Shown here: piece by piece, positions 8,341-48,865 of the stretch | Numbering within the stretch: position 1 is the first letter of the stretch | Layout: each line of letters opens with the position of its first letter | Origin: a virus | DNA: 64,000 nucleotides | Virus genome (UHGV): UHGV-0125682 | Strand: one strand, 5' to 3' | Notes under the pieces: generated by a model | Seen by the model: only the letters and a program-made list of their open reading frames with translations | Told to the model about the DNA's origin: nothing | Databases searched by the model: none | Made by a program: the position numbers and the translations under genes

Positions 8341-8351
8341 TCGCCTTGTTA

Positions 8352-8369
8352 AGTTAAATTTCTAACATA
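8352..8369 (+). promoter_or_regulatory. operator-like 17-bp repeat (TTTCTAACA core)
   Basis: aaatttctaacatag upstream of repL-like gene. Confidence 0.55.
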
Positions 8370-8540: not shown

Positions 8541-9503
8541 GTGAGTATTTTAAATTCAGTTTCAGTAACTTTCAACACTTCTGAGTATAAAAACAACACT
8601 GAATACCACAAAAAAATCAAAGGTCATCAGTTGAGTTTTTTTGCTCGTCATAGCGGTCTTCTTTCCCCTTCACATAGCGCCATTATTGCCGAGTTCGCCA
8701 ACCTGGCAGGGTCTACCGATGAATACATGATCCGTCGCTCATATGCTGATATGTCCGAGATTACAGGACGCAGTATTTCTACTGTGCGCCGGGCATTTGC
8801 TGAAGCGACGAAGTGCGGAATGCTTGTTAAGCAACATCAGGTAGCGAATAACAATGCCCAGGTGTGTAACGTATATCGGTTTACGACACAATTTCTCCAC
8901 TTCATTCATGTAGCAATGGAGATAGGGGGTAAGCAGGGCATCAAATTTGCCAACGCCACAAAACTGGTTAAGCAGTTGATTTCAAAGGTTCGTTATTTTT
9001 TTGAAACTGGGAACCCCCTGTTCAAATTGAACAAGTCCCCCCATGTTCAAAATGAACAGCCAATAGAAAATAAGAGTTACTCTATAGCCAAAAGAAGAGA
9101 AAGATCATGCGCGGTTCAGCCAAAGGCTTCACCAGCAGATAGTTCTCAAACGGATAACGGTGTACTGGATAAAAAACCAGTAATCAGGGAAGAACATACC
9201 AACCACTGCCTGGCGGCGGCAAAAGCGAGAGCTGCAAAGCGTCGTTCAGACGAGGGGCACGCAAAACGGCAGGCTCTGTATCGTACCGCTGAAAAGCTGG
9301 CAAAAAAATTTGCATGGATACGTAGTGCCGCTACCGCAGTGAATAAGCCTAAACAATCCAGTGCCCTGGATTTCTCAATGGATTATTCTGGCTCCCAGGG
9401 GTGTGCAACCATTGGTGAAGCCTTTGACCTGATGAAACAGCGTGGCTATCGGTCTGAATTTGACCGTGAGGATTGGTCAATCCCTGCGGGATTTAGGGGA
9501 TGA
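8541..9503 (+). CDS. repL: RepL-like replication initiator
   Basis: HTH-like segment MSEITGRSISTVRRAFAEATKCGML; operator upstream; adjacent to icd/ant module. Confidence 0.5.
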   Translation: MSILNSVSVTFNTSEYKNNTEYHKKIKGHQLSFFARHSGLLSPSHSAIIAEFANLAGSTDEYMIRRSYADMSEITGRSISTVRRAFAEATKCGMLVKQHQVANNNAQVCNVYRFTTQFLHFIHVAMEIGGKQGIKFANATKLVKQLISKVRYFFETGNPLFKLNKSPHVQNEQPIENKSYSIAKRRERSCAVQPKASPADSSQTDNGVLDKKPVIREEHTNHCLAAAKARAAKRRSDEGHAKRQALYRTAEKLAKKFAWIRSAATAVNKPKQSSALDFSMDYSGSQGCATIGEAFDLMKQRGYRSEFDREDWSIPAGFRG

Positions 9504-9556: not shown

Positions 9557-9573
9557 GTGTTAGAAAATTAATT
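9557..9573 (-). promoter_or_regulatory. operator-like repeat
   Basis: tgtgttagaaaattaat, with a second partial copy gtttctaaa at 9578..9586. Confidence 0.55.
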
Positions 9574-9641
9574 TGCTGTTTCTAAATCGGAATGTATGAT
9601 CTGCATCATCGACTGAAGTCATCCATTGCTGAAATTTTTAG

Positions 9642-9670
9642 TTGATCTTCCATGTTTTCAGGCTTATATT
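9642..9670 (+). promoter_or_regulatory. sigma70-like promoter for immI-like module 1
   Basis: TTGATC, 17-nt spacer, TATATT, just downstream of operator. Confidence 0.45.
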
Positions 9671-9916
9671 CATGCCGTCGTAGCAAATTCTGCGACCGGG
9701 TTTGACAGCCTGAATACTTACGCGGACAACCGCACATTTCCGATATTGCGGTATTTTTGTGTCCGTAAAACCACGTTACGCCCGAATTATGGTGGGGCGT
9801 GATGGGGAGGCTTCGGCCTGCTGGTTTCGTAAGTGCCAGTCTGTCAACCCTGTCACGTCCTGCCACCTGTTTGACAGCGGGTCGCAGGTTGTTTATCAAC
9901 TTACGAGGCCGTAACT

Positions 9917-10141
9917 ATGGTTAATGCCAATCCTTGCTCACGCCCAGAATTCATCTGGCGTTTCCACTCCCTGCAAAAACACTGCGATCACTTCGCAATT
10001 GCCGCAACCGAAAAAGAAGCCCGTTCTCTGATCCCTGATCAGTATGGTGTTCTTACTGGTCGTTTCTCTACTTCCCCACAACCAAACACTAATCCCTGGT
10101 ATCGCAATATTACCAATCCCGGAATTGCGGAGGCACACTGA
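9917..10141 (+). CDS. Icd-like small protein (74 aa) preceding antirepressor
   Basis: Paralog of 50316..50531 (shared EFIWRF and CQKH motifs); stop/start overlap with ant-like gene. Confidence 0.5.
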   Translation: MVNANPCSRPEFIWRFHSLQKHCDHFAIAATEKEARSLIPDQYGVLTGRFSTSPQPNTNPWYRNITNPGIAEAH

Positions 10142-10848
10142 TGGAAATCTGCATTCTTGAAAAGCCATCAATGACCAGCATTGAGATCGCGGAGCTGGTG
10201 GGAAGTCGTCACTCTGATGTTAAACGCAGCATCGAAAGACTTGTTGCTAAAGGAGTTATCCAACATACGCCATTGGCTACAGTTGAGAATAATCAATCAC
10301 TTAGCCCTAATAAATACACAAAAGCCTATTTCTTCGAAGGCGAGCAAGGCAAGCGCGATAGTATTGTCGTCGTCGCGCAGCTCTCTCCCGAATTCACCGC
10401 CCGGCTGGTGGACCGCTGGCGCGAACTGGAAGAACAAGTACGCCAGCCGTTGACCGAAATAGAGATGATCGCCGCAATGGCTGCAAATGCAGTTCAGCAG
10501 CAAAAGCGGCTTCATGTTGTTGAGTCAAAGGTTAGTCAGGTGGTAGAAACCGTCGAGCAAATCAAGAAGGGCAACATGCCAGATGGTTACATTGGCTACC
10601 GCCAGCTGGCTGCGAAATGTGGACTGACCGAAGCCAAATGCCGCAACCTGGTTAATGCTTACCGGATTCCCACCGATACACATGAGTTTTTAACTCCAGA
10701 GGGGGTATTGTCGCGTCGTTCCATCGTGGCCTTATCTCCCTTCATGAATGCTTTTAACCGGATGATGTCGGAGGCTGAACACCGAGGAAAACGCTGGTAT
10801 CACCCCAAAATGGGGCAATTCCAGGTGATCGGTTGGGGAGGTGAGTGA
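10141..10848 (+). CDS. antirepressor-like protein (Rha/Ant-type)
   Basis: N-terminal MTSIEIAELVGSRHSDVKRSIERL signature; paralog of 50531..51472. Confidence 0.7.
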   Translation: MEICILEKPSMTSIEIAELVGSRHSDVKRSIERLVAKGVIQHTPLATVENNQSLSPNKYTKAYFFEGEQGKRDSIVVVAQLSPEFTARLVDRWRELEEQVRQPLTEIEMIAAMAANAVQQQKRLHVVESKVSQVVETVEQIKKGNMPDGYIGYRQLAAKCGLTEAKCRNLVNAYRIPTDTHEFLTPEGVLSRRSIVALSPFMNAFNRMMSEAEHRGKRWYHPKMGQFQVIGWGGE

Positions 10849-11045
10849 TGGACATCATGCAGGCGGTAAAAAAAATCAGGGAAGGACAGGCTGAAGTGTG
10901 CCGCCGTAAAGCATGGAGTGTTGGTGTATGGGCCTGGCCTGATAATTACTCTACTACCGGATGGTTTTGTATTAATGGACTCCAGATCCGGGAAGTTGAT
11001 TTATCGACGGCTGATATAGTCGGTAATGATTGGATCGTGACTTGA
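10845..11045 (+). CDS. small protein homologous to C-terminal domain of the second antirepressor
   Basis: VCRRKAWSVGVWAWP and DWIVT match the C-terminus of 50531..51472; ATGA overlap. Confidence 0.5.
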   Translation: MMDIMQAVKKIREGQAEVCRRKAWSVGVWAWPDNYSTTGWFCINGLQIREVDLSTADIVGNDWIVT

Positions 11046-11053
11046 AGCGTGAT

Positions 11054-11078
11054 GCCCCGGCCTGGCCGGGGCTTTTTT
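11054..11078 (+). terminator. intrinsic terminator
   Basis: gccccggcctggccggggc hairpin plus T6. Confidence 0.75.
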
Positions 11079-20500: not shown

Positions 20501-20518
20501 ATGTTAGAAAACTAATTT
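20501..20518 (-). promoter_or_regulatory. operator-like repeat
   Basis: atgttagaaaactaattt upstream of 20540 gene. Confidence 0.55.
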
Positions 20519-22982: not shown

Positions 22983-23059
22983 GATGGTGTAGCTCAGTAG
23001 GATAGAGCAGCAGCCTTCTAAGCTGTCGGTCGGTGGTTCGAATCCACCCACCATCGCCA
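22983..23059 (+). tRNA. tRNA-Arg (anticodon UCU)
   Basis: Manual cloverleaf fold: 7-bp acceptor GATGGTG/CACCATC, TTCGAAT T-loop, anticodon loop CTTCTAA, encoded CCA. Confidence 0.85.
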
Positions 23060-23061
23060 AT

Positions 23062-23137
23062 GCCGGTTTAGCTCAGTTGGTAGAGCGCCTGCCTTGTAAG
23101 CAGGATGTCAGCGGTTCGAGTCCGTTAACCGGCACCA
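23062..23137 (+). tRNA. tRNA-Thr (anticodon UGU)
   Basis: Manual fold: acceptor GCCGGTT/AACCGGC, anticodon loop CTTGTAA, T-arm AGCGG-TTCGAGT-CCGTT, CCA. Confidence 0.85.
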
Positions 23138-24974: not shown

Positions 24975-25050
24975 GGCCCTTTAGCTCAGTGGTTAGAGCT
25001 GGCGACTCATAATCGCACGGTCACCGGTTCAAGTCCGGTAGGGGCCACCA
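24975..25050 (+). tRNA. tRNA-Met or tRNA-Ile2 (anticodon CAU)
   Basis: Manual fold: acceptor GGCCCTT/AGGGGCC, anticodon loop CTCATAA, T-arm ACCGG-TTCAAGT-CCGGT, CCA. Confidence 0.8.
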
Positions 25051-26471: not shown

Positions 26472-26485
26472 TGTTAGATGAATGG

Positions 26486-26505
26486 AATTAATTTTCTAAT
26501 ATAAC
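26486..26505 (+). promoter_or_regulatory. operator-like repeat (variant TTTTCTAAT) with inverted half-copy at 26471..26480
   Basis: gtgttagatg ... aattaattttctaatataac. Confidence 0.45.
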
Positions 26506-31301: not shown

Positions 31302-32330
31302 ATGGGCGAATTAATTATCTCTGGCAGTTCCGGTGGTTTTCTGCGCAACATTGGCAAAGAGTACCAGGAAGCCGCAGAAAACTTTATGCGGTTCATGAAT
31401 GACCAGGGAGCTTATGCGCCGAATACTCTGCGCGACCTCCGTTTGGTGTTTCATTCCTGGGCGCGCTGGTGTCACGCTCGCCAGCTTGCCTGGTTTCCGA
31501 TCTCACCAGAAATGGCCCGCGAGTATTTTCTTCAGCTGCATGATGCCGATCTGGCTTCGACCACCATTGATAAGCACTACGCCATGCTGAACATGCTGCT
31601 TTCGCATTGTGGCCTTCCACCACTTTCGGATGATAAAAGTGTTTCTCTGGCTATGCGGCGCATCCGGCGCGAAGCGGCAACTGAAAAAGGCGAACGAACA
31701 GGCCAGGCTATACCGCTGCGGTGGGACGATCTGAAACTGCTCGACGTCCTGTTGTCCAGGTCTGAACGGCTGGTGGCCCTGCGCAACCGGGCTTTTCTCT
31801 TTGTTGCATACAATACGCTGATGCGTATGTCGGAAATCTCGCGTATTCGTGTAGGAGATCTGGACCAAACAGGTGACACTGTCACGCTACATATTTCACA
31901 CACGAAGACAATAACGACCGCCGCCGGGCTTGATAAGGTGCTTTCCCGTCGCACTACCGCTGTGCTGAATGACTGGCTGGATGTTTCCGGGCTTCGCGAA
32001 CATCCTGACGCAGTGCTGTTCCCGCCGATACACCGTAGCAATAAGGCCAGGATCACGATAACGCCCCTTACTGCACCTGCAATGGAGAAAATATTCAGCG
32101 ACGCCTGGGTGTTGCTGAATAAAGGAGATGCTACGCCAAACAAAGGAAGATACCGGACGTGGACCGGGCATAGTGCACGCGTCGGGGCCGCTATCGATAT
32201 GGCTGAAAAGCAGGTCTCTATGGTGGAGATTATGCAGGAAGGAACCTGGAAGAAACCGGAAACACTTATGCGGTATCTGCGCCGTGGCGGCGTGTCTGTG
32301 GGGGCTAATAGCCGCCTGATGGATTTATAA
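31302..32330 (+). CDS. Cre/Dre-like tyrosine site-specific recombinase
   Basis: Alignable with Cre along its length (WFPxxPE, MRRIRRE, AFLxxAYNTLxRxxEIxRIRVxD, SGHSARVGAAxDMA, catalytic Tyr region MRYLR). Confidence 0.9.
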   Translation: MGELIISGSSGGFLRNIGKEYQEAAENFMRFMNDQGAYAPNTLRDLRLVFHSWARWCHARQLAWFPISPEMAREYFLQLHDADLASTTIDKHYAMLNMLLSHCGLPPLSDDKSVSLAMRRIRREAATEKGERTGQAIPLRWDDLKLLDVLLSRSERLVALRNRAFLFVAYNTLMRMSEISRIRVGDLDQTGDTVTLHISHTKTITTAAGLDKVLSRRTTAVLNDWLDVSGLREHPDAVLFPPIHRSNKARITITPLTAPAMEKIFSDAWVLLNKGDATPNKGRYRTWTGHSARVGAAIDMAEKQVSMVEIMQEGTWKKPETLMRYLRRGGVSVGANSRLMDL

Positions 32331-32349
32331 ATTAAATTTCTAACACATC
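32331..32349 (+). promoter_or_regulatory. operator-like repeat
   Basis: attaaatttctaacacatc upstream of 32404 operon. Confidence 0.55.
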
Positions 32350-33221: not shown

Positions 33222-33712
33222 TTTACGTAAAAGTGAAACGCCTACATCCGGCAGCAAAACTTCCAGCTTATGCCACCTCCGGATCGGCGGCGATGGATTT
33301 TGAGGCTGTTGAAATAAAACCATGCGTCGATAGCAATGGTGCAATTTCCTCAAGCTGGTGGGTGTACACCGGACTGGCTATGGAGATCCCGCCCGGCTGG
33401 TGTCTGAAACTCTATCCGCGCTCCGGATTGGGCTGCAAAAAACATACTCGCTTGGCTAACTGCGTAGGAATTATCGACTCCGATTATCGCGGTGAAATCA
33501 TGGCAAAACTGATTACTGATCCAGGCGGGGAAGTCGTTCGTCTCAAGCCTGGAATGGCTGTCATGCAAGGCATTTTTGAGCGTGTTGAACAAGTCTCACT
33601 AGTCGAGGTTGAGGAACTCAACGAAACGGAGCGTGGTGCTGGTGGCTTTGGTAGCACATCGGAAGGCCACTTTGAAATAAAGCGTTCACCGCTTCAGTAC
33701 GAAAAGTTATAA
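33218..33712 (+). CDS. dut: dUTPase (trimeric dUTP diphosphatase)
   Basis: dUTPase motifs GSAAMD, GIIDSDYRGE, ERGAGGFGSTS. Confidence 0.85.
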   Translation: MIYVKVKRLHPAAKLPAYATSGSAAMDFEAVEIKPCVDSNGAISSSWWVYTGLAMEIPPGWCLKLYPRSGLGCKKHTRLANCVGIIDSDYRGEIMAKLITDPGGEVVRLKPGMAVMQGIFERVEQVSLVEVEELNETERGAGGFGSTSEGHFEIKRSPLQYEKL

Positions 33713-33726
33713 GCAGAGAAAAGACC

Positions 33727-34494
33727 ATGAATAACATGAAAACAATTCAATACCGCTTGCGTAATGGCCTGCTGGTGGCTGTTAACGCCGACATGTCACT
33801 GCCGTTTGACACGATTGAACGCACTATCATGACGTATCTCGGCTTTAATGAAGAGCTGAATGAAGAGCATGGCGTAGCTATATGGAGTGATGCAGAAAGC
33901 GGCGTTCATCGTTACATCACCGCCAGGGGCAAAGACTACTCTCTTGAAGAACTGTTTACCCTTGCACAGTCTTTCGAATGTGTAGCATTAGACCTGTTTA
34001 ATGATCCTGCTATAGCGCAACGACTTATACGCGAGTTTGGGCTATCCGTTACACCAATTATCTTTAAAAATGGCAGCCTGACTGGCACATGGCGCGTAGA
34101 ACGCATCTCAAACTACCTTCCATATAACCGACAGTTAAATGGAGTAATCTCCGGCGTTAATCAGCCCGTAGCGTGTGAAAATGTAAACCTGGTTGTCGCT
34201 GTTTTGGCAACCGCATGTCGTGTTATCGGTTTGGCTAAACAGGCATTTATTCATTTCCCAAATGGTGCAGAAGGTAGCGCAGAGATTATCGCGTGTGATT
34301 TCGAATTTACCTGGATGCTACGCGAATATCTGGACCAAACAGTATTCCGTGCCGAAGAACTGGATATGTATATCACGTCAACGATTCCAGACGATGTGCG
34401 AGCTGAAGCAATCGCTACAGCCAGGGCGAAATGCCGTGCGGCGATTGCAGAACAGGCCAAAGAAGAAGTTAAGGAAGTGGCAGATGGCGACTAA
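33727..34494 (+). CDS. hypothetical protein (255 aa), coupled to terminase paralog
   Basis: Stop overlaps start of downstream gene by 11 nt. Confidence 0.5.
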   Translation: MNNMKTIQYRLRNGLLVAVNADMSLPFDTIERTIMTYLGFNEELNEEHGVAIWSDAESGVHRYITARGKDYSLEELFTLAQSFECVALDLFNDPAIAQRLIREFGLSVTPIIFKNGSLTGTWRVERISNYLPYNRQLNGVISGVNQPVACENVNLVVAVLATACRVIGLAKQAFIHFPNGAEGSAEIIACDFEFTWMLREYLDQTVFRAEELDMYITSTIPDDVRAEAIATARAKCRAAIAEQAKEEVKEVADGD

Positions 34495-35578
34495 GAGCAA
34501 TATTTATAAAGATCCGCGCTGGCTGTCGCTGGTGGAGAAATATAAAGACAATTGGGTACTGGCAGCAAAAGAATTGTTTGATATTGATTTAAGCCACCAG
34601 CAACAACAAATTGTTGAAGCTATACAGCCCAATAATGCAAAAGCTACTGTCACCACTCCGTATGGGATCGGACGACCGCAAGTGCTTGCTGTTATTAGTA
34701 CCCTTTATACGATTATGTATCCTGATTCCCGGACAGTAATTGTTTATCCAAAATCAAATGTTTGCAAAAGAGGAATTGTTGCATATGTGTGGCAATGTTG
34801 GGAGGCATTGCTGAAAAAACAACCTTTTATCATTGAGTATTTTAAGGTCGGTGATAGCGGTCTGATGTTCAATGAATTTTGGGGAATGTGCTTTTGTAAC
34901 TACCGCCTTAACTATGAAGATAGCATTGCAGGTCACTACGCCGACCATCTTTTATTCATTATTGTGGATTCCGCACATATCAGCGATCGGGCATACAGCA
35001 TTGTGTGGGCAAGCATGACTAGTGGTGATTCACGCATATTGCTCACTTCAATTCCGTCACCAGAGGAAATAGGCTTTTTTTATGATTCACATCATGGACG
35101 TGCTTTAGCTGAAGATAATCCGAGTGGTGTATATAAAGCCATTAAGCTGAGTGCGGAGGATTCACCATTTATTACCCAAGAATATCTTGATCATTTTGCC
35201 GAAAGGTATGGCGGGCGAAATAGTGATGACTATCGTCGTATGATTCTTGGTGAGTTCCCTGGTATTAGGGAGGCTGTTCTTGAATCAGATATGCCGAAGA
35301 CAATGCGCTTTTCGATGCCTGATGGTAGTGAATGGACAATGCCATTACGAGTGATAGCCCGGCATCATGCGCAGCACCACGCCAAAAAACATGGCGTCAC
35401 AACATTAGAATGGTTGAAATCGCACACTATTCCACTCTTCACTGCAGATCACAATGCTATCGTTGAGTGGGCAAAAACAATTCCGTGGGAGCATGTCGCT
35501 GAATATGCTCACATGCTAAAACCGCCGAAAGACAGGCACGAAATTAGCTGGCTGACAGCCGAAAAAATCATTGAATGA
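34484..35578 (+). CDS. terminase-large-subunit ATPase-domain paralog with degenerate Walker motifs, no nuclease domain
   Basis: Aligns to PacB residues about 20-260 (SHQQQQI, DSHH, EDNPxG, SPFxT, YGGR) but Walker A reads YGIGRPQ and Walker B reads IIVDSAH; start reassigned to ATG 34484 with AAGGAAG RBS. Confidence 0.7.
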   Translation: MATKSNIYKDPRWLSLVEKYKDNWVLAAKELFDIDLSHQQQQIVEAIQPNNAKATVTTPYGIGRPQVLAVISTLYTIMYPDSRTVIVYPKSNVCKRGIVAYVWQCWEALLKKQPFIIEYFKVGDSGLMFNEFWGMCFCNYRLNYEDSIAGHYADHLLFIIVDSAHISDRAYSIVWASMTSGDSRILLTSIPSPEEIGFFYDSHHGRALAEDNPSGVYKAIKLSAEDSPFITQEYLDHFAERYGGRNSDDYRRMILGEFPGIREAVLESDMPKTMRFSMPDGSEWTMPLRVIARHHAQHHAKKHGVTTLEWLKSHTIPLFTADHNAIVEWAKTIPWEHVAEYAHMLKPPKDRHEISWLTAEKIIE

Positions 35579-35582
35579 TAGT

Positions 35583-35614
35583 AAGAAGCCCGCCTGGTTG
35601 AGCGGGCTTCTTTT
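35583..35614. terminator. intrinsic terminator between convergent genes
   Basis: gaagcccgcctggttgagcgggcttc hairpin plus TTTTC. Confidence 0.7.
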
Positions 35615-35994
35615 CAAATATTGGAACCATATAGTTCACGTAGTTTTTTCGCTACTGAAGATACGGGGATTTCACCAGTTGCAGCCCCCACTGCAAGCTC
35701 CACCAGCACGGGATCATCATATACCTGTATACCGTTACGGCGTAGAAATAGCAGCGCACTGTTTAGCGCGGTACGCTTATTGGCATCATTGAATATATGC
35801 CCTCTCGCCGTAGCCACCAGGTAGGTGGCGGAGACTTCGAAAAGGTCGGTGATCTCTTCGTAGGCAACTCTGGCCTGAACTCTCCCGATAATGGCCTCTG
35901 CCCTACCCGGATCTGACATTCCCGGCAGGCCGCCGTAGCGGCTTATATTCGCATCATGAAGCGCAATAAGTTCTTCCGGTGATATATGCCTCAT
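35614..35994 (-). CDS. doc: Doc toxin (Fic-fold)
   Basis: Near-identical in my recollection to P1 Doc ([22 protein letters not shown]...). Confidence 0.9.
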
Positions 35995-38080: not shown

Positions 38081-39569
38081 GGTCCGCCTCATGCTTTTCA
38101 GCCACCAGCGGCAATAAAGCCCTGGCCATCTTATGAACCAATAGTGCATCAATAATGCCAAGCGTATGCCCCGGCTTAATGTTTAATGCCGCCTCAAGGT
38201 GACACCTTTCCAGGCCACTTTTCTCGGCTTGTTTATGATGATCTGGTGTAATAACGTCGCCCAAAACACGGCTAATTCTTTCTCGTAATTGCTGGGTGCC
38301 AGCACACTTGATCGCTGTATCGTGGAGACGGTTAACCAGTTCGCGATAAACATGCGGCTTAATTCGGATACGTTCACCGGTGACGCCCTTTCCTGGTGCT
38401 GGCACCGAACTATCCGGAATATCCGGATAGTTGCCTGCCAGTCTACGCAAAACGGCCTTAACAGCCTCAATACGGTCATCATCGCAATTTTCCAGCGTAT
38501 CTATGCGATCGAGCATGATGATGGCGTTATCAATATCAGGATTGCCGGTCCACTCATTACCGCGATTGGATTCGGCAGCCTGGTTGCCGCGTACTGGTTG
38601 ATTATCGGCTTTACCCAGTCTGTCGTTGCTGCATGAATGCCCTTCCAGCAAGGCCAATGCTTGTCGCATGAAATACGCAATATGTTTGCCGTGGTAATCG
38701 TCTTCATCGATGTGAAAAGCGATACTGCGGATGTATTCAATTGCGTTTTCAATGGCCTCCGGCGTTATCGGCGCTGACATATTTTGATTTTGGAGTGCCA
38801 AGACGCGACTGGCATCCTCAACGTTCTTCACTGCATCTGCGCAGTAGTTATAGCGATTGCATTCCACTAACTTCTGCTTGAGATTTTCAATTGCTTGCGC
38901 GACATCAGCCTGTATTTCCGGAACTGGCGGAACGGCTGTCTGCTGCTCTCGAACGTCATTAGTCGCTATCGGTTCTGCTGCCAGCTGACTGGCATATTTG
39001 TTAATGGTAACGATAAGCTCTTGCTCGGCCTCATCCAGACAATCACCGATACCTCGCCTGTCACCGTCAAAATCATCGAAATCGGCACGAATCTTGGCAA
39101 CCTTCTGGATTGCGGACAACACCTCACTAGGAATTACCGGATAGTTGGTTGACGTTTCCGCGATTTCCCGAAAATTATTGGTTGACGAATTCTTGTTTTC
39201 CCGAAAGTTTCCGGACTGAAGCATGGCTTCGCGGCAATCGTTCCAGCCTGTAGCGTATGCAGCCGCTTTGCTGCTGCCTTCAACTGGCGCATCCTGCCAA
39301 TACATTTCTTCCGGCACTACCTGCACCTGAGGGGTGGCGTAGAGTGGAATTCCTCCCCCTCCACCAGAAAATTCATTGCGAGCGTTATACTCACGACCAT
39401 CTGCGTCATCACGCATCCACGCCACCGGTTCTGCTTCCAGCGATGCCAGCGCGATACGAAACACATTGGCAAGCAGGCTGTCTGAAGATTGGTTATCGTG
39501 CGCCGGGTCGCTCAGGAAGCCTGTGATGAATGATTTAATCTCCGCACGTTCTTTGGTAATAGTGGTCAT
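38064..39569 (-). CDS. hypothetical protein (501 aa)
   Basis: Shares a YRELVNxLxD...GTxQLRER segment with 48042..48656. Confidence 0.5.
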   Translation of the reverse strand: MTTITKERAEIKSFITGFLSDPAHDNQSSDSLLANVFRIALASLEAEPVAWMRDDADGREYNARNEFSGGGGGIPLYATPQVQVVPEEMYWQDAPVEGSSKAAAYATGWNDCREAMLQSGNFRENKNSSTNNFREIAETSTNYPVIPSEVLSAIQKVAKIRADFDDFDGDRRGIGDCLDEAEQELIVTINKYASQLAAEPIATNDVREQQTAVPPVPEIQADVAQAIENLKQKLVECNRYNYCADAVKNVEDASRVLALQNQNMSAPITPEAIENAIEYIRSIAFHIDEDDYHGKHIAYFMRQALALLEGHSCSNDRLGKADNQPVRGNQAAESNRGNEWTGNPDIDNAIIMLDRIDTLENCDDDRIEAVKAVLRRLAGNYPDIPDSSVPAPGKGVTGERIRIKPHVYRELVNRLHDTAIKCAGTQQLRERISRVLGDVITPDHHKQAEKSGLERCHLEAALNIKPGHTLGIIDALLVHKMARALLPLVAEKHEADHANES

Positions 39570-39579
39570 GTGTTACTCC

Positions 39580-39843
39580 TTAACCCGCAGTGCTTTCAAC
39601 TGATGAGGGGAACAAAATCTTTTCATCAAACCCTGCATTCATATCATGAACAGCAACACACCAATCCATCGACGAACGATTATCAAGAGCCTCCATGATT
39701 TCATCCATGCGGCGCAGGTCATACAGGTAAATGCTTTTATCGCCAATGGTGTAAAAGCCAATTTTTTTCGGTGATGGACAGCGATCAAGAACGTCCTGTA
39801 ATTCGTTCAACCATGCCCGTTCTTTTTTTGTTAAAGTTGCCAT
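39580..39843 (-). CDS. hypothetical protein
   Basis: Start reassigned to MATLTKK with AGGAGAG RBS. Confidence 0.45.
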   Translation of the reverse strand: MATLTKKERAWLNELQDVLDRCPSPKKIGFYTIGDKSIYLYDLRRMDEIMEALDNRSSMDWCVAVHDMNAGFDEKILFPSSVESTAG

Positions 39844-40205
39844 ATCACTCTCCTTTAGTGCGCAAATGGTTTTTCCAGCGGTTTTGCGCCGCGCTGGGCT
39901 TTTTGCAAAAACCACAATCCATCATCCCGTAATATTTCATCAACCCCATCCGTCGGTTGCTGAGTCTCACCCACTGCCAGACGCCAGGAGCGTTTCTACG
40001 AACTAACAGAATCTTTGCTTTACGGTTTTTCATCGCTTTGCTCTCCTGCGTCTCTTTGCTGCTCGTCGTGCCGCTGCAATACCGGTATGGCGGCGCTTTG
40101 GTGCCGGGATGATGTTGTCAGCCATCAGGACATACGGCTTTGCAATTAGCGCAGAAGCCCAAAAACGAGTCGGGTACGGTAACAAGCCGATACATGCCAC
40201 ACGCA

Positions 40206-40967
40206 TTACTCACCTCCTTTGATGCGAATGCCTGCAGCGCGGATTGCAGCGATGACTTCAGAAACTTTGTATGCCATTACCGTTTGGTAATCATCGTGAA
40301 AATCTGTTCGATGAAGCATGCTGCTACGTTCCGGGAGCGATATTTCCCGAGCATCCAGTTCCTTAACGCGTTCCTCCAGTTCGTAGACCCTGCATTGTTC
40401 TCTATCATCAATCAGATATAACCCAAGACATTCGCTTTCTACCCAACCGCCAAAATCATGATCGTAACGCTCACATGAAAACTCACCGTCACCGTCCTTT
40501 GTTGGAATGGTGTAACTATCTAATGGGCCACCATATGTCGGCACATTTCCCAATGTTGGATGCTCAATCCACATGAAAAATGCACGTCCGGTTATTGGGC
40601 AAATATCTGGCCGCCATTGGTTACGAACAGCCTTGGTTTCGGATAATTCTTCAGCGTGTTGTTTTACTTCCTCAAGCTCAACTCTCAGCTTCCCTACCGT
40701 TAGCGCAATATCCTCGTTCTCCTGATCGCGGCGTTTTATGTATTGCTGGTTTCTTTCCCGTTCATCCAGAAGCGCCAAGACGGTAGCCGGATTGGCTGCG
40801 GCGATGAATTCAGCATCACGAGATTCGTTTTCACTGAACACCATAGCTATTTGCTCATGGTTTATGCCGTCAGTGGAGTAAATCTCATCGTCGAATTCAA
40901 CAGCCCACTTACCTTTCGTAGCCTTCTCTGCCGCCTCACGCAGTGCCTGATAGTCAATCTTGCTCAC
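40206..40967 (-). CDS. Ead/Ea22-like protein
   Basis: N-terminal MSKIDYQALREAAEKAT signature. Confidence 0.55.
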   Translation of the reverse strand: MSKIDYQALREAAEKATKGKWAVEFDDEIYSTDGINHEQIAMVFSENESRDAEFIAAANPATVLALLDERERNQQYIKRRDQENEDIALTVGKLRVELEEVKQHAEELSETKAVRNQWRPDICPITGRAFFMWIEHPTLGNVPTYGGPLDSYTIPTKDGDGEFSCERYDHDFGGWVESECLGLYLIDDREQCRVYELEERVKELDAREISLPERSSMLHRTDFHDDYQTVMAYKVSEVIAAIRAAGIRIKGGE

Positions 40968-41268
40968 TGGCAGCCTCCTTTGCCGGGATTTCTAACTTTT
41001 GAGTGGTTGTATCAAATTCAAACAACTTAACCACGTCATCAAACAGGACATAATCACCATCAGGATCTTCAGTCATATCTGCGCCACAATCCTGACCGCA
41101 CGAGTCGCAACCATCCATATCAAGCTCGTATCGCTTCAGGTTTGCGATATTTGATAAATTCAGCGCCAGTACAGCCAGGTCATAAACCTCTTCGGCAGTG
41201 ACATCGCTGTTCAGTCCCATTTCATGGCGATATATGATTTTTTCTACCCGTTGTTTTGTGATTGTCAT
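40954..41268 (-). CDS. hypothetical acidic protein
   Basis: ORF. Confidence 0.45.
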   Translation of the reverse strand: MTITKQRVEKIIYRHEMGLNSDVTAEEVYDLAVLALNLSNIANLKRYELDMDGCDSCGQDCGADMTEDPDGDYVLFDDVVKLFEFDTTTQKLEIPAKEAASEQD

Positions 41269-41765
41269 TTTTGCTCACCTCCCTGTTCTTCCAGAAAAAT
41301 ACGCATAGCCTCAAGCATCTCTTCGGTGTCATACGGTGACAACTTGTCACGCAGGATGTGTTCAATGCTGTTAATGAACTTGCGGATTGCTTTGCGTTCA
41401 ATTTCAGCCAGGAAAGCGTCGGTGGCTGACATATTTCCTGTTGCCTTCATGGCCTTCAAAATAACCAGAACGCCATCTCGCCCAACCACCTCAGCGATAA
41501 CCTCAGTGTTGTCGCCAACAACATCGCAGAATGCCTGAACTGCCTTACGAGCCAGCTCATTCTCCACTGCCAGCGCCGCGCACTTGGCCTCAAGAGCGGC
41601 AACCACTTCCTGATGGTCTTTGTACTTAACGTATGAGCCGGAGATGTCATCACCTTCGGTGTTTAGCCATGCGTCATTGCAATTCACTGCGTAGGTTCTG
41701 ATGCTCATGTTGATGCTCTCCCGCCCCTGACAGACGCCAGGCCAGTCAATAAAGTATCCGCACAA
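41265..41765 (-). CDS. hypothetical protein (Ea22-like C-terminal region), start uncertain
   Basis: Overlaps an Ea22-like N-terminal fragment ORF (41705..41890) in another frame. Confidence 0.4.
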   Translation of the reverse strand: MCGYFIDWPGVCQGRESINMSIRTYAVNCNDAWLNTEGDDISGSYVKYKDHQEVVAALEAKCAALAVENELARKAVQAFCDVVGDNTEVIAEVVGRDGVLVILKAMKATGNMSATDAFLAEIERKAIRKFINSIEHILRDKLSPYDTEEMLEAMRIFLEEQGGEQK

Positions 41766-41876
41766 TGCCTACCCTCAGACGTGCGCGCAGGATAAATGCC
41801 GTTATGACCCGGCAAAATATATGCTACCCATTCATCTTGCGTTGCCTGTTCCGCCGCCTCGCGCAGTTCTTGATAG

Positions 41877-42578
41877 TTAATTTTGCTCACTGGTTGCCCC
41901 CTGAATACGCTTAAACTCGATTACCCACACCCAAGGATTAGCGTTCCAACTATCTTCGCCATAAATTGATTTCCATAGGCTACGGAAACATGGGTAATGC
42001 TTATCGCCAATGAGGGTCGATTCTGTTGGTGCGCCCTCAGCCCTTGCATCGCATTCGCTGATATCGTTCAACCGCTCAACGCGCACGTTGGTAATTTCCA
42101 GAAGAATGCGCGATGCCCAGCGCGGCATGTGAATTGATGGACACCACCCGCCATCAAATTTTTCATTCACAGTGTGAGGTTTCCAGTCGGCATCATCGGG
42201 TATCGACCACAAGCCGTAATCACCCGGCTTTTGCTCACAACTGGCCCGATAAATCCTTGCTGCGTTCTTCTCATCGCCACGACAAAGGTTGTCGTTCCAG
42301 TCCACACTGCAACCATCCTCATTGCCTAATATCGCCCACGCCTCACGGACCCATATGCGATCACCAACGTTACCGAACGGGCATAAACCATGTTCAGGTG
42401 CATCCATAACGTGGGTATAGACACCATTGCGTTTCTTTGTCGGTTTACGGATAACCAGGCAGTTATCGGCCCTGACATTTTTTACAGGTCGGCGAGTCTG
42501 CGTCTTCCTTCCTTCGAGGATGGCCCTGACCATCTCATCGTTAAAAATCATCCCGCGTTCTTTCATTTTTTGATCCAC
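41877..42578 (-). CDS. hypothetical prophage protein
   Basis: ORF. Confidence 0.5.
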   Translation of the reverse strand: MDQKMKERGMIFNDEMVRAILEGRKTQTRRPVKNVRADNCLVIRKPTKKRNGVYTHVMDAPEHGLCPFGNVGDRIWVREAWAILGNEDGCSVDWNDNLCRGDEKNAARIYRASCEQKPGDYGLWSIPDDADWKPHTVNEKFDGGWCPSIHMPRWASRILLEITNVRVERLNDISECDARAEGAPTESTLIGDKHYPCFRSLWKSIYGEDSWNANPWVWVIEFKRIQGATSEQN

Positions 42579-42582
42579 CTCA

Positions 42583-43578
42583 TCAGTTATTGAAAGTGAT
42601 CACTCCGCGCTCGATGGCGAAGTCAAAAAGCTGGTTAGCGGCTACGTAAAGGCGTATGCCATGTGCTTTTTCCCATGCCCGGACATCGTTTTCTGCGCTT
42701 CTGGCGCAGTCATCGCAAAGAGGAACAGCCCAGCGGTCGTGTTCGTTTAACGAGCGGGCGCGGTACATGAACGGGTGGTTAACTTTGCCACCGCATCCGA
42801 TGCACGGACGAGAAACCACAAACCGGAGATAAGCCGGGCTTTTACCGAGGACCGCTTTTGGTCGGCGCATATAAAGCAGGCCGGAATCCTCATCTACAGA
42901 CAGGTTGACGATCTGCTCTGCGGTTATGTCCACCAGCTCGCGGGTACTGTGCTCCCAGGTGATATCTGATTCTTTCAGCGTACCGGTAGGGATTTCAGTT
43001 TTTGGCTGACAAAATGCAATGCGACCGGCTTCATCTGGCAGCTCATCTTTCAGATTCCGGCGAATGGCCCAAAAAGTGAGTTCAACCATGCTCAGATCGC
43101 GTTCTGGCGGTAGTTTTAACTCGCTCGCAGCCCAGTTCATAACCCAGTTGGCACGATTCAGGGATAACTGGTCGTCCAGCTTGCTGTACCCCTTCATCAT
43201 GTATTCCGCATCATGCTTCCAGCACAGGCGAACGGCAGAGCCGTTATAGAAATGAGTGGTTAGCTGGTGGCTGCAATCGCGCTTATCGTGCGCCTGGCAA
43301 TCGTGGATATTGGAACTTACCCAATGAACAAGCGAATCTTCACCGCCCAACGCGTTAAATACGCGCTCGCTTTGAAAAAACGGTTTCAGAGACTGGTTGG
43401 CAACCAGCGAATAATTCAGATCCACTACGCCATCTGGCGTGTTTTCAGCCTGTTCACGCGGAAGTGGGGAGATAATGAAACGGCGACCTACGCCAATGTA
43501 GTTACTGGTGGGCTTGTCTACCGGAAAGACAGCCACACCAGCTCCGTTTACGAAATGAGGTGTGATTATTGCACTCAT
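42583..43578 (-). CDS. hypothetical protein with Cys-rich C-terminal domain (DUF968-like)
   Basis: C-terminal CIGCGG...CDDC cysteine cluster. Confidence 0.5.
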   Translation of the reverse strand: MSAIITPHFVNGAGVAVFPVDKPTSNYIGVGRRFIISPLPREQAENTPDGVVDLNYSLVANQSLKPFFQSERVFNALGGEDSLVHWVSSNIHDCQAHDKRDCSHQLTTHFYNGSAVRLCWKHDAEYMMKGYSKLDDQLSLNRANWVMNWAASELKLPPERDLSMVELTFWAIRRNLKDELPDEAGRIAFCQPKTEIPTGTLKESDITWEHSTRELVDITAEQIVNLSVDEDSGLLYMRRPKAVLGKSPAYLRFVVSRPCIGCGGKVNHPFMYRARSLNEHDRWAVPLCDDCARSAENDVRAWEKAHGIRLYVAANQLFDFAIERGVITFNN

Positions 43579-43618: not shown

Positions 43619-43656
43619 TATGTTAGAAAACTAAAATCAATGTTCTAACACATTTT
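43619..43656. promoter_or_regulatory. tandem divergent operator-like repeats
   Basis: atgttagaaaactaaaat and aatgttctaacacatttt, upstream of the leftward operon starting at 43578. Confidence 0.55.
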
Positions 43657-45169: not shown

Positions 45170-45414
45170 TGTGGTGGCTCCTGCTTTTCTGCCTTTAATA
45201 CCATGCGAGAACCATCATCCAGCTCCCAATTAATTTCACCGCCTTCAGCCATGACTAGATGCCAAACGAGTTGTGCGGCCTCGTTGGTTACATCACGACC
45301 GCGATCATTGCCGACACGACGTTTTGTTCCATCCCCTAAGTCACGCATTTTTGCCAACACGATGGTTTTTGATAGCGGTGAAAAACCAAGCTGTAGTCGT
45401 GCGGTATTACTCAC
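45166..45414 (-). CDS. hypothetical protein
   Basis: ORF. Confidence 0.45.
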   Translation of the reverse strand: MSNTARLQLGFSPLSKTIVLAKMRDLGDGTKRRVGNDRGRDVTNEAAQLVWHLVMAEGGEINWELDDGSRMVLKAEKQEPPQ

Positions 45415-46052
45415 TGTTTGCCTCCTTTTCGAAGCTGGTCAGCGAACCTATCAGCTGCATCCGCGCAAGCAGAAGCAACGGAATCAAAAAATGGATCATC
45501 TCCGGTATCGCGCATCGTCAAAGCGAATGCCTCCACCCCTTGTGCCTGTATTTCTACAAGGTATGCCTTAGATGTAGTGCTTTTCGCCTCGCCTAATTCG
45601 TTATGAGCGATGTTCGCTATACATGCGATGTCTATATCTGGATGATTAATTGGGCAATGGCTAAGAATTGCCTCAAGTGCTGCTTTTTTGCTTTGGCATT
45701 CCGCCACCATCGCCCCGCAATTGCTTTCATATTCGGCAATACGCTGTTTAGCAGCCTCCAGCTCAACACGCAGCTTCTCAAGCGTTAGAGCCATCTCCAT
45801 GTTCTCGTCCAGCAGTTCAATCACATCAGGATCGCTATCATCAACTACTGTTATGCGCGATTTTTTGTAATGCTCGTCAGCATAAGTTCGTCCAGTTTTG
45901 AAGCATCCGTCGTCCTCCATGCCGGAACAGGCATAAACAACATGTGATCCAGATATGCGCTGCATTGACATTTCCTCGCCACAAACAGAGCATTTAGGCG
46001 CTGGTTTCGGTGAAAAACGTTCACGTAACGTATGATAGTAAAGCTCGCTCAC
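45411..46052 (-). CDS. Ea22-like protein
   Basis: Shared C-terminal ...ADQLRKGGKQ module and coiled coil. Confidence 0.5.
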   Translation of the reverse strand: MSELYYHTLRERFSPKPAPKCSVCGEEMSMQRISGSHVVYACSGMEDDGCFKTGRTYADEHYKKSRITVVDDSDPDVIELLDENMEMALTLEKLRVELEAAKQRIAEYESNCGAMVAECQSKKAALEAILSHCPINHPDIDIACIANIAHNELGEAKSTTSKAYLVEIQAQGVEAFALTMRDTGDDPFFDSVASACADAADRFADQLRKGGKQ

Positions 46053-46846
46053 TGGCTGCCTCCTTTGCGAAGCTGTTCAGCGATATCTTCGAGAACGCCA
46101 TCAGAGAATGAGCGGTCAAAATCGCCTTCCCGCGCATTAGCCATAAACTCAGTAGAGGTAAGAATCATCCGGGCAATATCCGCGGCGTTCTTCGCAGTAT
46201 CATCAATAAAACCAGCTTCCCAAGCAGCCAGCATTCTGTTCGCCACAAAGTAAGCGCCCTCCTTGCGTGCTTCAGTCTTCACTTCATCCAGGAAAGTGTC
46301 GGTCGCAGGAGTGGTTTTTTGTGGTGATAGGGCGATACGAATTGTTTCAAGAGCTGGATCTATTTCCACTGTTGGCACTTTGATAAAACCAAGCTGCACG
46401 CCATTCATAATGAACGTGCGGCGATCCTCACATATCGCCTTCAGTCTCGCATTCTCCGCAGCCAGCGCCGCGCGATTACCCTCCAGCTCTGCAATGCGCT
46501 GTTTTGCGGTATCAAGTTCAATCGATAATTTTTCCAACTGCTCTTTATGCTTCTTATATTCCTGATATGCGTGCCAGGACTGACCTTTGCGCACACTATC
46601 AGTAATATCAGTAATCTGTTCTGGTGTTAGCGTAGTCAGTGGCTGTGCTGGGAAAATCAGCACTTTCCCGGAATCCCAATCAAAACCAGCGTGAATTGAC
46701 TGAACCTCAACTGAGGGTGTTGAACCAATGCTGCCAGGCGAATGAACAACGATCGTTACATCCATATCGCGACGATGGCTGTGGTTGTTGGACAAAATAC
46801 GATTCACCAACTCAGAAAATTTGGAGAATTTCATGCGGAGCCTCAA
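46049..46846 (-). CDS. Ea22-like protein
   Basis: C-terminal ...AEQLRKGGSQ module. Confidence 0.5.
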   Translation of the reverse strand: MRLRMKFSKFSELVNRILSNNHSHRRDMDVTIVVHSPGSIGSTPSVEVQSIHAGFDWDSGKVLIFPAQPLTTLTPEQITDITDSVRKGQSWHAYQEYKKHKEQLEKLSIELDTAKQRIAELEGNRAALAAENARLKAICEDRRTFIMNGVQLGFIKVPTVEIDPALETIRIALSPQKTTPATDTFLDEVKTEARKEGAYFVANRMLAAWEAGFIDDTAKNAADIARMILTSTEFMANAREGDFDRSFSDGVLEDIAEQLRKGGSQ

Positions 46847-47253
46847 TATGCAAAATAGACCGTTGCCACGCCGTTATAGTGATCAAACGATACGGCGTTT
46901 ACTTCATAGCTGGCAGGGAGCTTCGATCCGAGAACATATCCGGGCCACGTTTTCCATGGAATTTCTCTACTCTCACTATCCCCATATACCGTACATCCAA
47001 GTGAACCTACAGCTTCATTAGAACGCGTGCCGCACGTTATGAATCCCAGATTTTGCTTACTGCTCTTAATGGTGATTGAGTGAACGCTGGCTGATGCATT
47101 AGCAGCACGCTGTGCCTGTTGGTTTGCGATATTCGCAGAGTTCGCAGCAGCTACAGCAGCCGTAGTCGCGGCGGTAGAGGCTACAATAGCTGCTGAAGCA
47201 TGCACTTGTTGGATATTCACCAACAATGCCGCGACAAAAATCATCTTCTTCAC
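46843..47253 (-). CDS. secreted protein with signal peptide
   Basis: N-terminal signal sequence MKKMIFVAALLVNIQQVHA. Confidence 0.5.
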   Translation of the reverse strand: MKKMIFVAALLVNIQQVHASAAIVASTAATTAAVAAANSANIANQQAQRAANASASVHSITIKSSKQNLGFITCGTRSNEAVGSLGCTVYGDSESREIPWKTWPGYVLGSKLPASYEVNAVSFDHYNGVATVYFAY

Positions 47254-48845: not shown

Positions 48846-48865
48846 TGTGTTAGAAAATCAATTTT
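48846..48865 (-). promoter_or_regulatory. operator-like repeat
   Basis: tgtgttagaaaatcaatttt upstream of ref-like gene. Confidence 0.55.

Follow-up and report, generated by a model that had tools for sequence, protein, structure and literature searches.

Evidence for an immI-type secondary immunity operon in a D6-like, P1-family plasmid prophage

Positions 9557–11078 of virus genome UHGV-0125682 very probably form an immI-type secondary immunity operon of a D6-like plasmid prophage of the P1 family. The window (the whole stretch of DNA analysed, 64,000 nucleotides) is about 95% identical in DNA to phage D6 (95.3% over the whole stretch), and the 400-nt leader differs from that of D6 by a single base. 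The P1/P7-type immI homologue found here is a known, ordinary system, and an earlier note on this DNA was correct in pointing to a P1-like c4, icd, ant arrangement: the region gives Rfam matches, and its leader aligns base by base with the annotated immI regions of P1 and P7. A P1-type antisense immunity operon can be recognised by reading a sequence alone. Homologues of c4, icd and the antirepressor gene, together with a second c4/icd region, have already been published for the D6-like plasmid pYU39_89 (PMC6799933).

The orf19-orf18-orf17 segment of Escherichia phage D6 is essentially the same locus. Its GenBank record calls orf17 hypothetical and has no entries for a c4 RNA, an operator or a/b sites; base-level coordinates for C4, a1/b1, a2/b2, the operator and the promoters are supplied in Table 1. 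Of the 23 D6-like loci retrieved, 21 have the gene order repL, c4, icd, Rha-type protein, small ORF; the remaining two are cut by a contig end or are without a downstream match. A search of genome contigs contributed only 6 further loci. As the earlier note had remarked, the order relative to repL is unlike that of P1: repL (8541–9503) lies upstream of the module, whereas in P1 immI is followed by kilA-repL. Downstream are a convergent CHAP-domain gene and darB. Neither kilA nor sim adjoins the module, unlike in P1, and annotation and domain searches of the locus, together with comparison of D6-like loci, placed no kilA downstream. A second, paralogous module (module 2, as opposed to module 1 described here) lies at 50051–51472 in the same window and has different, orthogonal a/b sequences.

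Table 1. Features of module 1, with their positions in the window
Feature	Position	Strand	Remarks
D6-type C1 operator candidate, GTGTTAGAAAATTAATTT	9557–9574	+	repeated motif; positional counterpart of P1 Oc4/Op51
Possible operator-overlapping promoter, TTTGCT-17 nt-TATGAT	9572–9600	+	found by eye; counterpart of P1 P2c4/P51a
Sigma-70 promoter, TTGATC-17 nt-TATATT	9642–9670	+	promoter scan, 9/12 matches; counterpart of P1 P1c4/P51b
a1/b1 leader element, IsrK-like	9664–9758	+	Rfam matches and fold
a1, TTGACAG	9702–9708	+	complement of C4 a'; P1 a1 annotation
b1, ACTTACG	9716–9722	+	complement of C4 b'; duplex −11.5 kcal/mol
Predicted mature C4 antisense RNA, 77 nt	9791–9867	+	ends transferred from annotated P1 c4 RNA
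b', UCGUAAGU	9827–9834	+	loop of C4 hairpin 2; specificity determinant
a', CUGUCAA	9841–9847	+	single-stranded joint of C4; 5' arm of the stem in the earlier note
a2, TTGACAG	9871–9877	+	4 nt past the C4 3' end; 3' arm of that stem; P1 a2 annotation
b2, ACTTACGA	9899–9908	+	overlaps icd Shine-Dalgarno GAGG (9905–9908)
icd-like gene, 74 aa	9917–10141	+	61% identity to P1 Icd; NF033153; phrog_1426
Rha/Roi-family protein, 235 aa, presumed antirepressor	10141–10848	+	start overlaps icd stop (TGATG, 10139–10143)
Third gene, 65 aa, predicted Tad2-like/DUF2829 fold	10848–11045	+	start overlaps preceding stop (TGATG); phrog_7385
Intrinsic terminator	11054–11078	+	8 G-C pairs then T6; operon end

The C4 RNA and its target elements

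The Rfam C4 model (RF01695) matches positions 9785–9870 over its full length (1–87 of 87) with 69.6 bits, against a gathering score of 45, a covariance-model scan that the earlier note had put forward as its check. The RNA folds with a minimum free energy of −43.3 kcal/mol (z-score −4.5) in the Rfam topology, leaving a' and b' unpaired. In alignment its sequence is that of P1 C4 apart from 5 nt in the b' loop, and the predicted mature RNA shares its two end sequences with the annotated P1 c4 RNA. The immI regions of P1 and P7 have all RNA elements in the same order around an identical C4 scaffold. Spacing is also close: a1 and b1 lie 14 nt apart (start to start) in both P1 and module 1, and a2 and b2 lie 28 nt apart here and 29 nt apart in P1.

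Both targets in front of icd are complementary to C4. The a2 complement is exact over 7 nt, and b2 contains an exact 8-nt complement (9899–9906) adjoining the GAGG; b' and its own b2 form an 11-bp duplex (−14.4 kcal/mol) that reaches into the GAGG. With the corresponding targets of P1, P7 and module 2, the b' energies are −4.2, −5.0 and −6.9 kcal/mol. From these energies each target would be repressed by its cognate C4 alone, perhaps with some partial cross-talk of P1 and module 1 via the a' that both carry. TTGACAG occurs only twice on the plus strand of the 64-kb window, both times in the module 1 leader, and ACTTACG likewise has no plus-strand site in the window outside these target elements. 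Module 1 and P1 have the same a', whereas b' reads CGUAAGU in module 1, CACUAAC in P1 and CACAAUC in P7, and b1 and b2 differ likewise.

The earlier note had described a 7-bp stem about 40 nt before the icd start and a copy of its 3' arm farther upstream. The two arms (CTGTCAA at 9841–9847 and TTGACAG at 9871–9877) are exact, and the second ends 39 nt before the ATG at 9917. They do not form a plain cis hairpin; they are the two partners of an antisense-target pair, a' and a2. The upstream copy is present and corresponds to a1, one base away from the 9703–9709 given. The b'/b1/b2 set had been passed over.

The arms lie only 23 nt apart on one transcript, and pairing of a' with a2 in cis, within an unprocessed precursor, would fit the co-variation described below equally well. 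It is nevertheless very unlikely that the complementarity serves solely as a cis-acting leader hairpin or attenuator controlling icd, with no trans-acting small RNA. In whole-leader folds, a check that the earlier note had also proposed, a' does not pair with a2; C4 folds independently in its Rfam topology and a2 sits in a small hairpin of its own. A simple stem also leaves unexplained the third copy of the sequence (a1) and the parallel b'/b1/b2 set, and the match of the region to the C4 covariance model spans the full length. According to PMC12197685, the homologous RNA of P1 and P7 is an antisense RNA and determines heteroimmunity. We favour a C4 that would act in trans as an antisense RNA.

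Comparison with relatives reveals co-variation of these elements. In 68 of 68 related leaders, comprising 8 allele combinations, each of a1, a2, b1 and b2 is an exact complement of the C4 in the same leader, and highly variable alignment columns are enriched 8.6-fold in the six elements (Fisher p = 1e-7). The elements were extracted by regular expression combined with alignment; the MAFFT alignment misplaced module 2. On the same backbone, four further C4 specificity alleles are found among other D6-like plasmids, and P1-like and D6-like plasmids have in common a small combinatorial set of 2 a' and 5 b' alleles. Alleles matched perfectly at three separate sites imply strong selection for new immunity types.

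The presence of two paralogous modules in one element could mean that module 1 is a redundant, decaying and non-functional copy of the module at about 50 kb. We find this scarcely credible. The three ORFs of module 1 are intact, and a promoter, ribosome-binding site and terminator are present. Its four target elements are perfectly complementary to its own C4, as they are in the 68 relatives despite frequent allele changes, and complementarity kept through such changes requires selection. The a/b sequences of modules 1 and 2 do not cross-pair, as expected for two independent switches.

The P4 CI RNA and the N15 immA RNA are C4-like immunity RNAs: small, processed and in control of an anti-immunity operon. 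The module 2 query matched P4 cI, and the immA operon of N15 also contains icd (PMC4488713). The gene content and repressor systems of P4 and N15 differ from those of module 1.

Operator, promoters and the a1/b1 leader

The operator repeat reported in the earlier note is real. Allowing up to 3 mismatches, the window contains 9 copies of GTGTTAGAAAATTAATTT, compared with 0.10 expected from shuffled sequences, and all nine copies are intergenic, just upstream of D6 genes that include repL, lpa and ref. In D6-like loci the site lies at a constant distance 5' of the leader, where P1-like loci have the P1 operator; the operator type tracks the plasmid backbone and not the C4 allele. By its position, the motif at 9557–9574 would be a binding site of the C1 repressor. 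The consensus of the P1 C1 operator, ATTGCTCTAATAAATTT, had 0 matches in the window at up to 3 mismatches, and we ruled out a P1-type operator; the sequence here is of the D6 type instead. Neither the full 28-nt stretch at 9560–9587 nor its right half is repeated in the window; only the left 18 nt recur. We also rejected a 7-bp inverted repeat (TTAGAAA/TTTCTAA) as a second half-site, the right half giving approximately 10 of 18 operator matches by hand count.

The sigma-70-like promoter of the earlier note was recovered at 9642–9670, aligned with the annotated P1 promoter TTGACC/TATAGT. A second promoter may overlap the operator at 9572–9600: the P1 annotation likewise has the −35 element of P2c4/P51a overlapping the 3' end of the operator. 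The 9572–9600 sequence has a weak −35 element and fell below the threshold of the promoter scanner. The immI regions of P1 and P7 begin with a C1-type operator followed by a second, unregulated promoter, an arrangement that the candidate operator of module 1 would reproduce. The leader is approximately 240 nt long from the 9642–9670 promoter and approximately 310 nt from the weaker, operator-overlapping one, so that the 270 nt estimated in the earlier note holds as an approximation. At the other end of the operon, the terminator is common to the operon and the convergent CHAP-domain gene.

Between the promoters and C4, the leader element at 9664–9758 folds into a first hairpin, a hairpin that presents a1, a single-stranded b1, a terminator-like hairpin and a U-run. 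Rfam RF03163 (c4-a1b1) matches positions 9664–9716 over the full model (1–53 of 53) with 55.9 bits (gathering score 46.7), a further positive outcome of the proposed covariance-model scan. Rfam RF01394 (isrK) matches positions 9677–9758, also over the full model, with 46.5 bits (E 3.9e-9), slightly under its threshold of 50; the isrK match of module 2 reaches 62.5 bits, above that threshold. The a1/b1 leader of P1-type modules thus matches the IsrK model, which joins two usually separate literatures.

These matches raise the possibility that the a1/b1 leader gives rise to a short, terminated IsrK-like RNA (approximately 9677–9758). By binding a' and b' of C4, this RNA would serve as an anti-antisense activator of icd and of the genes that follow it. 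The isrK match takes in the terminator stem and U-run, and module 2 has a bona fide isrK match, complete with a strong terminator, immediately before its C4, in a stretch with homologues in many Stx phages; one Stx-phage record (LC710661) annotates isrK and C4 side by side. In Gifsy-1, the short IsrK RNA acts in trans to raise orf45-anrP translation more than 100-fold, and processing of the orf45 region yields an RNA of approximately 80 nt (PMC4825925). Gifsy-1 isrK-orf45-anrP, the isrK and C4 pairs of Stx phages and module 2 are alike in having a short terminated leader RNA with target-like sequences, a structured RNA of approximately 80 nt, and a small ORF coupled to an antirepressor-type gene.

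For module 1 we nonetheless regard an IsrK-like activator as possible but unlikely. At 46.5 bits its isrK score falls short of the family threshold of 50, and its terminator-like hairpin, with an inner stem of 6 bp, a loop of 12 nt and a broken U-run, is weak and was missed by the terminator scan. The P1 annotation calls a1 and b1 merely "putative" targets, and the orf45 region of Gifsy-1 is only presumed to be a C4 homologue. The logic described for Gifsy-1 is activation by a short RNA, whereas that of C4 is repression. An IsrK-like leader RNA would be a layer added to antisense control by C4, not a substitute for it.

Three coupled genes and the proposed switch

The first gene encodes an icd-like protein, as the earlier note had proposed; besides its identity to P1 Icd, the product matches NCBIfam NF033153 (phage_ICD_like) with 40 bits (cutoff 25). 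The overlapping stop and start codons couple it translationally to the next gene, as in the immI regions of P1 and P7, and the second gene is coupled in the same way to the third.

We propose that transcription would start at the constitutive promoter at 9642–9670, and probably also at the weaker upstream promoter that overlaps the C1-type operator at 9557–9574, where C1 would repress it. The transcript would comprise, in order, the a1/b1 leader, C4, the a2/b2 targets and the three translationally coupled genes. C4 would be excised from its own transcript as a 77-nt tRNA-like RNA, as it is in P1, where processing, with RNase P cutting at the 5' end, yields a C4 of 77 nt that acts in trans. The b' element in the hairpin loop and a' in the single-stranded joint would pair with b2 and a2 of the mRNA, and the icd ribosome-binding site would therefore be hidden. 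In P1, repressed icd translation exerts polarity on ant: without icd translation the downstream genes are unexpressed because of transcriptional polarity. By analogy, the genes downstream of icd would be silent here as well, and with icd and these genes unexpressed the module would be silent in the lysogen. If target transcripts came to exceed the C4 pool, Icd would block cell division and the second protein would presumably inactivate the C1 repressor. The a' and b' sequences would set the immunity specificity, module 1 having the a' of P1 with a b' unlike that of P1 or P7. Summaries of the P1 mechanism are given by PMC12197685, PMC8201110 and the feature notes of NC_005856.

An antirepressor role for the 235-aa product of the second gene is presumed from its position and from database annotation, and to that extent the antirepressor gene of the earlier note stands. 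It is not a homologue of P1 Ant1/2: BLASTP against P1 Ant1 gave E 0.36 and no meaningful alignment. Where P1 and P7 have Ant1/Ant2, module 1 has an unrelated protein of the Rha/Roi family, which matches Pfam PF09669 (Phage_pRha) over the full profile (33.4 bits, residues 11–98, cutoff 29.9) and shares 65% identity with the module 2 protein and 87% with its D6 counterpart. In phiP27, which encodes the closest full-length phage homologue, neither C4 nor icd precedes the gene.

There is a real, if minority, chance that this protein is not an antirepressor but a Rha/Roi-type DNA-binding regulator of lytic promoters or host functions, and that the module controls something other than C1 inactivation. 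It combines the Phage_pRha domain with a winged-helix domain; its N-terminal domain is of the Rha/Roi DNA-binding type and may belong to a transcription factor. In public records the family goes by "Rha family transcriptional regulator" or "DNA-binding protein Roi". A sequence search of the PDB found nothing significant, and no close relative that is solved or experimentally characterised came to light. On the other side, in both modules, and in almost every D6-like locus that was retrieved, a Rha-type protein translationally coupled to icd holds precisely the ant position; the best PHROG families are labelled anti-repressor (phrog_63, "anti-repressor Ant", 2e-46), and the D6 authors annotated a putative anti-repressor. 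These arguments from position and annotation are all non-experimental. We retain the presumed antirepressor as the working assignment.

The third ORF (10848–11045), which the earlier note had passed over, is an addition relative to the immI regions of P1 and P7, and structure modelling predicts that its product adopts a Tad2-like fold. Sequence searches with the ORF returned only 3 and 8 relatives. A first model built from 3 sequences (pLDDT 58) was discarded; the model used, built from 6 sequences, has a pLDDT of 90.9. In a PDB search with this model the ten best matches were all Tad2 (probability 1.00, TM 0.72–0.76), with TM below 0.45 for matches after the top ten, and a BFVD search returned Tad2-like/DUF2829 proteins with TM up to 0.81. 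By sequence, the protein matches Pfam PF11195 over its full length with 15.2 bits (E 0.032), below the cutoff of 25; of its remote homologues, P0009 passes with 37.4 bits and P0005 comes near with 23.9. Against the PDB there was no sequence match, and a profile gave weak AcrIIA7/Tad2-type matches only (E 0.11). At 65 residues, the protein is shorter than the solved Tad2 chains (73–96 residues listed). Tad2 itself is a Thoeris anti-defence sponge: it binds the signalling molecule gcADPR and blocks this defence.

A broader reading, which we consider improbable, is that the immI modules of D6-like plasmids go beyond antirepressor switching and are antisense-gated cassettes, from which an induction factor would be released along with a Tad2-like nucleotide-binding protein, and that the a1/b1 leader is an IsrK-type anti-antisense RNA. 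If this were true, escape from lysogeny would be coupled to neutralising or sensing host Thoeris-type immune signalling. P1 C4 and Salmonella IsrK would then be parts of one three-RNA device of decoy, antisense RNA and target, and the a'/b' alleles of this device would be swapped combinatorially between plasmids to give new immunity specificities.

The Tad2-like fold is predicted for a previously unannotated gene. In module 1 this gene is separate, whereas in module 2 the Tad2-like domain is fused to the C-terminus of the presumed antirepressor.

C4 RNA and its targets in the module 1 leader

Module 1, the immI-type operon at window positions 9557-11078, is the textbook P1 immI switch. Since c4/icd regions in D6-like plasmids, a second one included, have also been published for pYU39_89 (PMC6799933), this finding was already known. 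The interpretation in the earlier note is supported with two corrections, one to its "stem" and one to its "antirepressor".

The covariance-model scan that the earlier note had called for was positive: the leader matches Rfam C4 (RF01695; 69.6 bits, threshold 45) at 9785-9870, and also Rfam c4-a1b1 (RF03163; 55.9 bits, threshold 46.7) at 9664-9716. Folded alone, C4 adopts the fold of the Rfam model (-43.3 kcal/mol, z-score -4.5) and leaves its pairing elements, b' and a', unpaired. It differs from P1 C4 at 5 bases, all within b'. The resemblance to the P1 c4-icd-ant arrangement holds, as do the exact positions of CTGTCAA (9841-9847) and TTGACAG (9871-9877), but we reject their reading as a simple leader stem: alignment with P1 places a' within C4 and a2 in its target, an antisense-target pair. 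The upstream TTGACAG is indeed a repeat, located one base from the proposed 9703-9709, at 9702-9708; the + strand of the 64-kb window holds no copy other than these two, both in the module 1 leader. A parallel set of elements, b', b1 and b2, had been missed. The GAGG ribosome-binding site reached by b2 lies 8 nt before the icd ATG.

RNase P processing of C4 and Rho-dependent polarity in P1 were reportedly described by Citron, Biere, Hartmann and Schuster. By homology with P1, processing, action in trans and polarity are predicted for module 1: C4 would be cut out of its own transcript, its b' and a' would pair with b2 and a2 to occlude the icd ribosome-binding site, and the coupled downstream genes would go unexpressed, with the a'/b' sequences setting immunity specificity. 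The P1 mechanism is summarised in PMC12197685, PMC8201110 and the feature notes of the P1 record.

Features of modules 1 and 2 and of the operator set
Feature	Window position	Strand	Basis or remark
D6-type operator candidate GTGTTAGAAAATTAATTT (18-mer)	9557-9574	+	repeated motif
Promoter TTGATC-17 nt-TATATT	9642-9670	+	aligned with annotated P1c4/P51b promoter of P1
a1 TTGACAG, upstream repeat	9702-9708	+	alignment with annotated P1 record
b1	9716-9722	+	
Mature C4, predicted, 77 nt	9791-9867	+	identity with annotated P1 RNA
b' UCGUAAGU, loop of C4 hairpin 2	9827-9834	+	
a' CTGTCAA, inside C4	9841-9847	+	alignment with annotated P1 record
a2 TTGACAG, four bases past C4 3' end	9871-9877	+	alignment with annotated P1 record
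b2, runs into GAGG ribosome-binding site	9899-9906	+	
icd-like gene, 74 aa	9917-10141	+	61% identical to P1 Icd; passes NCBIfam phage_ICD_like
Rha-family protein, 235 aa	10141-10848	+	passes Pfam Phage_pRha; PHROG families labelled anti-repressor
Third gene, 65 aa (hypothetical orf17 in D6)	10848-11045	+	TGATG coupling to previous gene
Strong terminator, ends operon	11054-11078	+	
CHAP-domain gene, 161 aa	11078-11563	-	Pfam PF05257; putative peptidoglycan hydrolase in D6
Module 2, second paralogous immunity module	50051-51472	+	
Module 2 isrK match	50051-50129	+	62.5 bits
Module 2 C4 match	50174-50261	+	76.7 bits
Module 2 icd-like gene	50316-50531	+	
Module 2 Rha-type protein, 313 aa	50531-51472	+	
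Tad2-like domain, fused at C-terminus of 313-aa protein	51281-51469	+	
Further operator-motif RTGTTAGAAAATTAATTT copies	8351-8368, 20501-20518, 26485-26502, 32329-32346	-, +, -, -	intergenic
Further operator-motif RTGTTAGAAAATTAATTT copies	43634-43651, 48847-48864, 49498-49515, 60459-60476	-, +, -, +	intergenic

Allele combinations and pairing specificity

We gathered 86 loci through the Icd protein, with 68 full-length leaders (30 distinct). The elements, structure and complementarity of the module 1 RNA are accompanied by co-variation: in 68/68 leaders, a1, a2, b1 and b2 show perfect complementarity to the a' or b' of that leader. Eight combinations were seen; a' has two alleles (CTGTCAA, CTGCTAA), and b' has five (CACTAAC, CACAATC, CGTAAGT, CATTCGT, CACAAGT). 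Highly variable alignment columns make up 18/44 in the six elements and 18/242 elsewhere, an 8.6-fold enrichment (Fisher p = 1e-7). The a sites are interleaved with the b sites, so that switching one allele takes changes at three separate places.

Module 1 and P1 have the same a' sequence. Cognate b'-b2 pairing is predicted at -14.4 kcal/mol, compared with -4.2 for the P1 target, -5.0 for P7 and -6.9 for module 2. The elements of module 2 (a' GUUCCAA, b' CCUUUUGC; a1/a2 TTGGAAC, b1/b2 GCAAAAGG) are unrelated to those of module 1, and no cross-pairing is predicted between the two modules. CGTAAGT with CTGTCAA, the combination carried by module 1, is also present in other elements of the D6-like and P1-like types. 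Among D6-like backbones whose icd is ~100% identical there are five different combinations, and specificity alleles are common to D6-like and P1-like backbones (related loci L004-L089).

This combinatorial allele set, the isrK match and the Tad2-like third gene, none of which we found described in the accessible literature, are modest by-products of the analysis.

Plasmid backbone and operator set

Window 9500-11100 matches the P1-like plasmid prophage of Escherichia phage D6 over its full length at 95.3% identity, and it matches >100 plasmids (~90 kb each) from E. coli and Salmonella at 94-96%. Homology to P1, P7 and other P1-like phages is restricted to the leader and icd start (9657-10028; 86-92% identity). 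The D6 record lists repL (orf20), an icd homologue (orf19), orf18 ("putative anti-repressor, similar to HK97 Roi") and hypothetical orf17 at this locus; its annotation there includes neither an RNA gene nor an operator nor target sites. As the earlier note recognised, gene order differs from P1, with repL upstream of module 1 and downstream of immI in P1. Also unlike P1, module 1 adjoins neither kilA nor sim, has a D6-type operator, a b allele new relative to P1 and P7, a Rha-family protein in place of Ant1/2 and an extra Tad2-like gene, and the window holds a second, paralogous module.

The window and D6 are not colinear throughout: several 2-4 kb stretches that lack any D6 match of 800 bp or more lie at ~45200-47500, 33700-35700 and 38900-42600, and for this reason module 2 sits ~3.5 kb beyond the position expected from D6. 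Rfam finds three tRNA genes (22983-23134 and 24975-25047 (+)), in the region equivalent to the annotated D6 tRNA cluster.

Both the sigma70-like promoter and the operator repeat proposed for module 1 are present. The operator motif occurs nine times in the window with at most 3 mismatches (0.10 expected). Mapped to D6, 9/9 copies are intergenic and just upstream of genes; the eight further copies precede homologues of repL, pmgS, lpa, orf117, pdcB, ref, orf86/85 (which lead to module 2) and hrdC. In P1 the repL, lpa and ref homologues are C1-controlled. The set is a candidate map of the C1 regulon in D6-like plasmids. The P1 C1 operator consensus is absent from the window; read by eye, the motif and the P1 operator have similar 3' halves (AATTAATTT and AATAAATTT, respectively). 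Among related loci, operator type tracks plasmid backbone irrespective of C4 allele; the distance upstream of the leader anchor is 118-119 nt for the D6 type (in D6-like loci) and 89-90 nt for the P1 type (in P1-like loci).

IsrK-like leaders and downstream genes

The isrK model aligns full length to 9677-9758 (46.5 bits, under the threshold of 50; E 3.9e-9), taking in a terminator-like stem and U-run. The leaders of both modules share a three-hairpin plan in predicted folds, the module 1 hairpin being a weak terminator. The module 2 isrK region (50038-50129 (+)) scores 22.4 bits against c4-a1b1; many Stx phages carry homologues of its isrK-C4 stretch, and one Stx-phage record (LC710661) annotates isrK and C4 side by side. 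The Rfam families c4-a1b1 and isrK seem to represent one kind of leader element. IsrK, a short RNA of Gifsy-1, acts in trans to activate translation of the coupled genes downstream (PMC4825925, where P1 is unmentioned). From the isrK match, the shared folds and this activation, we therefore suggest that the a1/b1 leader might act as a decoy for C4.

The start of the 235-aa gene lies in the icd stop codon (TGATG). The earlier note called this gene an antirepressor; its position agrees, but the protein belongs to the Rha family and has no similarity to P1 Ant1/2. A PDB sequence search found no solved relative. The closest full-length phage homologue, a phiP27 protein annotated Ant (70% identity), is preceded by neither C4 nor icd. 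For these reasons the protein is a presumed antirepressor by position only.

The 65-aa product of the third gene was modelled confidently from a 6-sequence alignment (pLDDT 90.9), and the model has a Tad2-like/DUF2829 fold. Its best ten PDB matches, with probability 1.00 and TM 0.72-0.76, are all Tad2 Thoeris anti-defence proteins, and viral-library matches are Tad2-like/DUF2829 proteins (TM up to 0.81). The direct Pfam match is under threshold (15.2 bits, threshold 25); one remote homologue passes. The Tad2-like domain of module 2 is 41% identical to the 65-aa protein; for the 120 top-ranking homologues of the 313-aa protein, the precomputed Pfam domain lists lack it. The convergent CHAP-domain gene and the immI operon end at one shared terminator.
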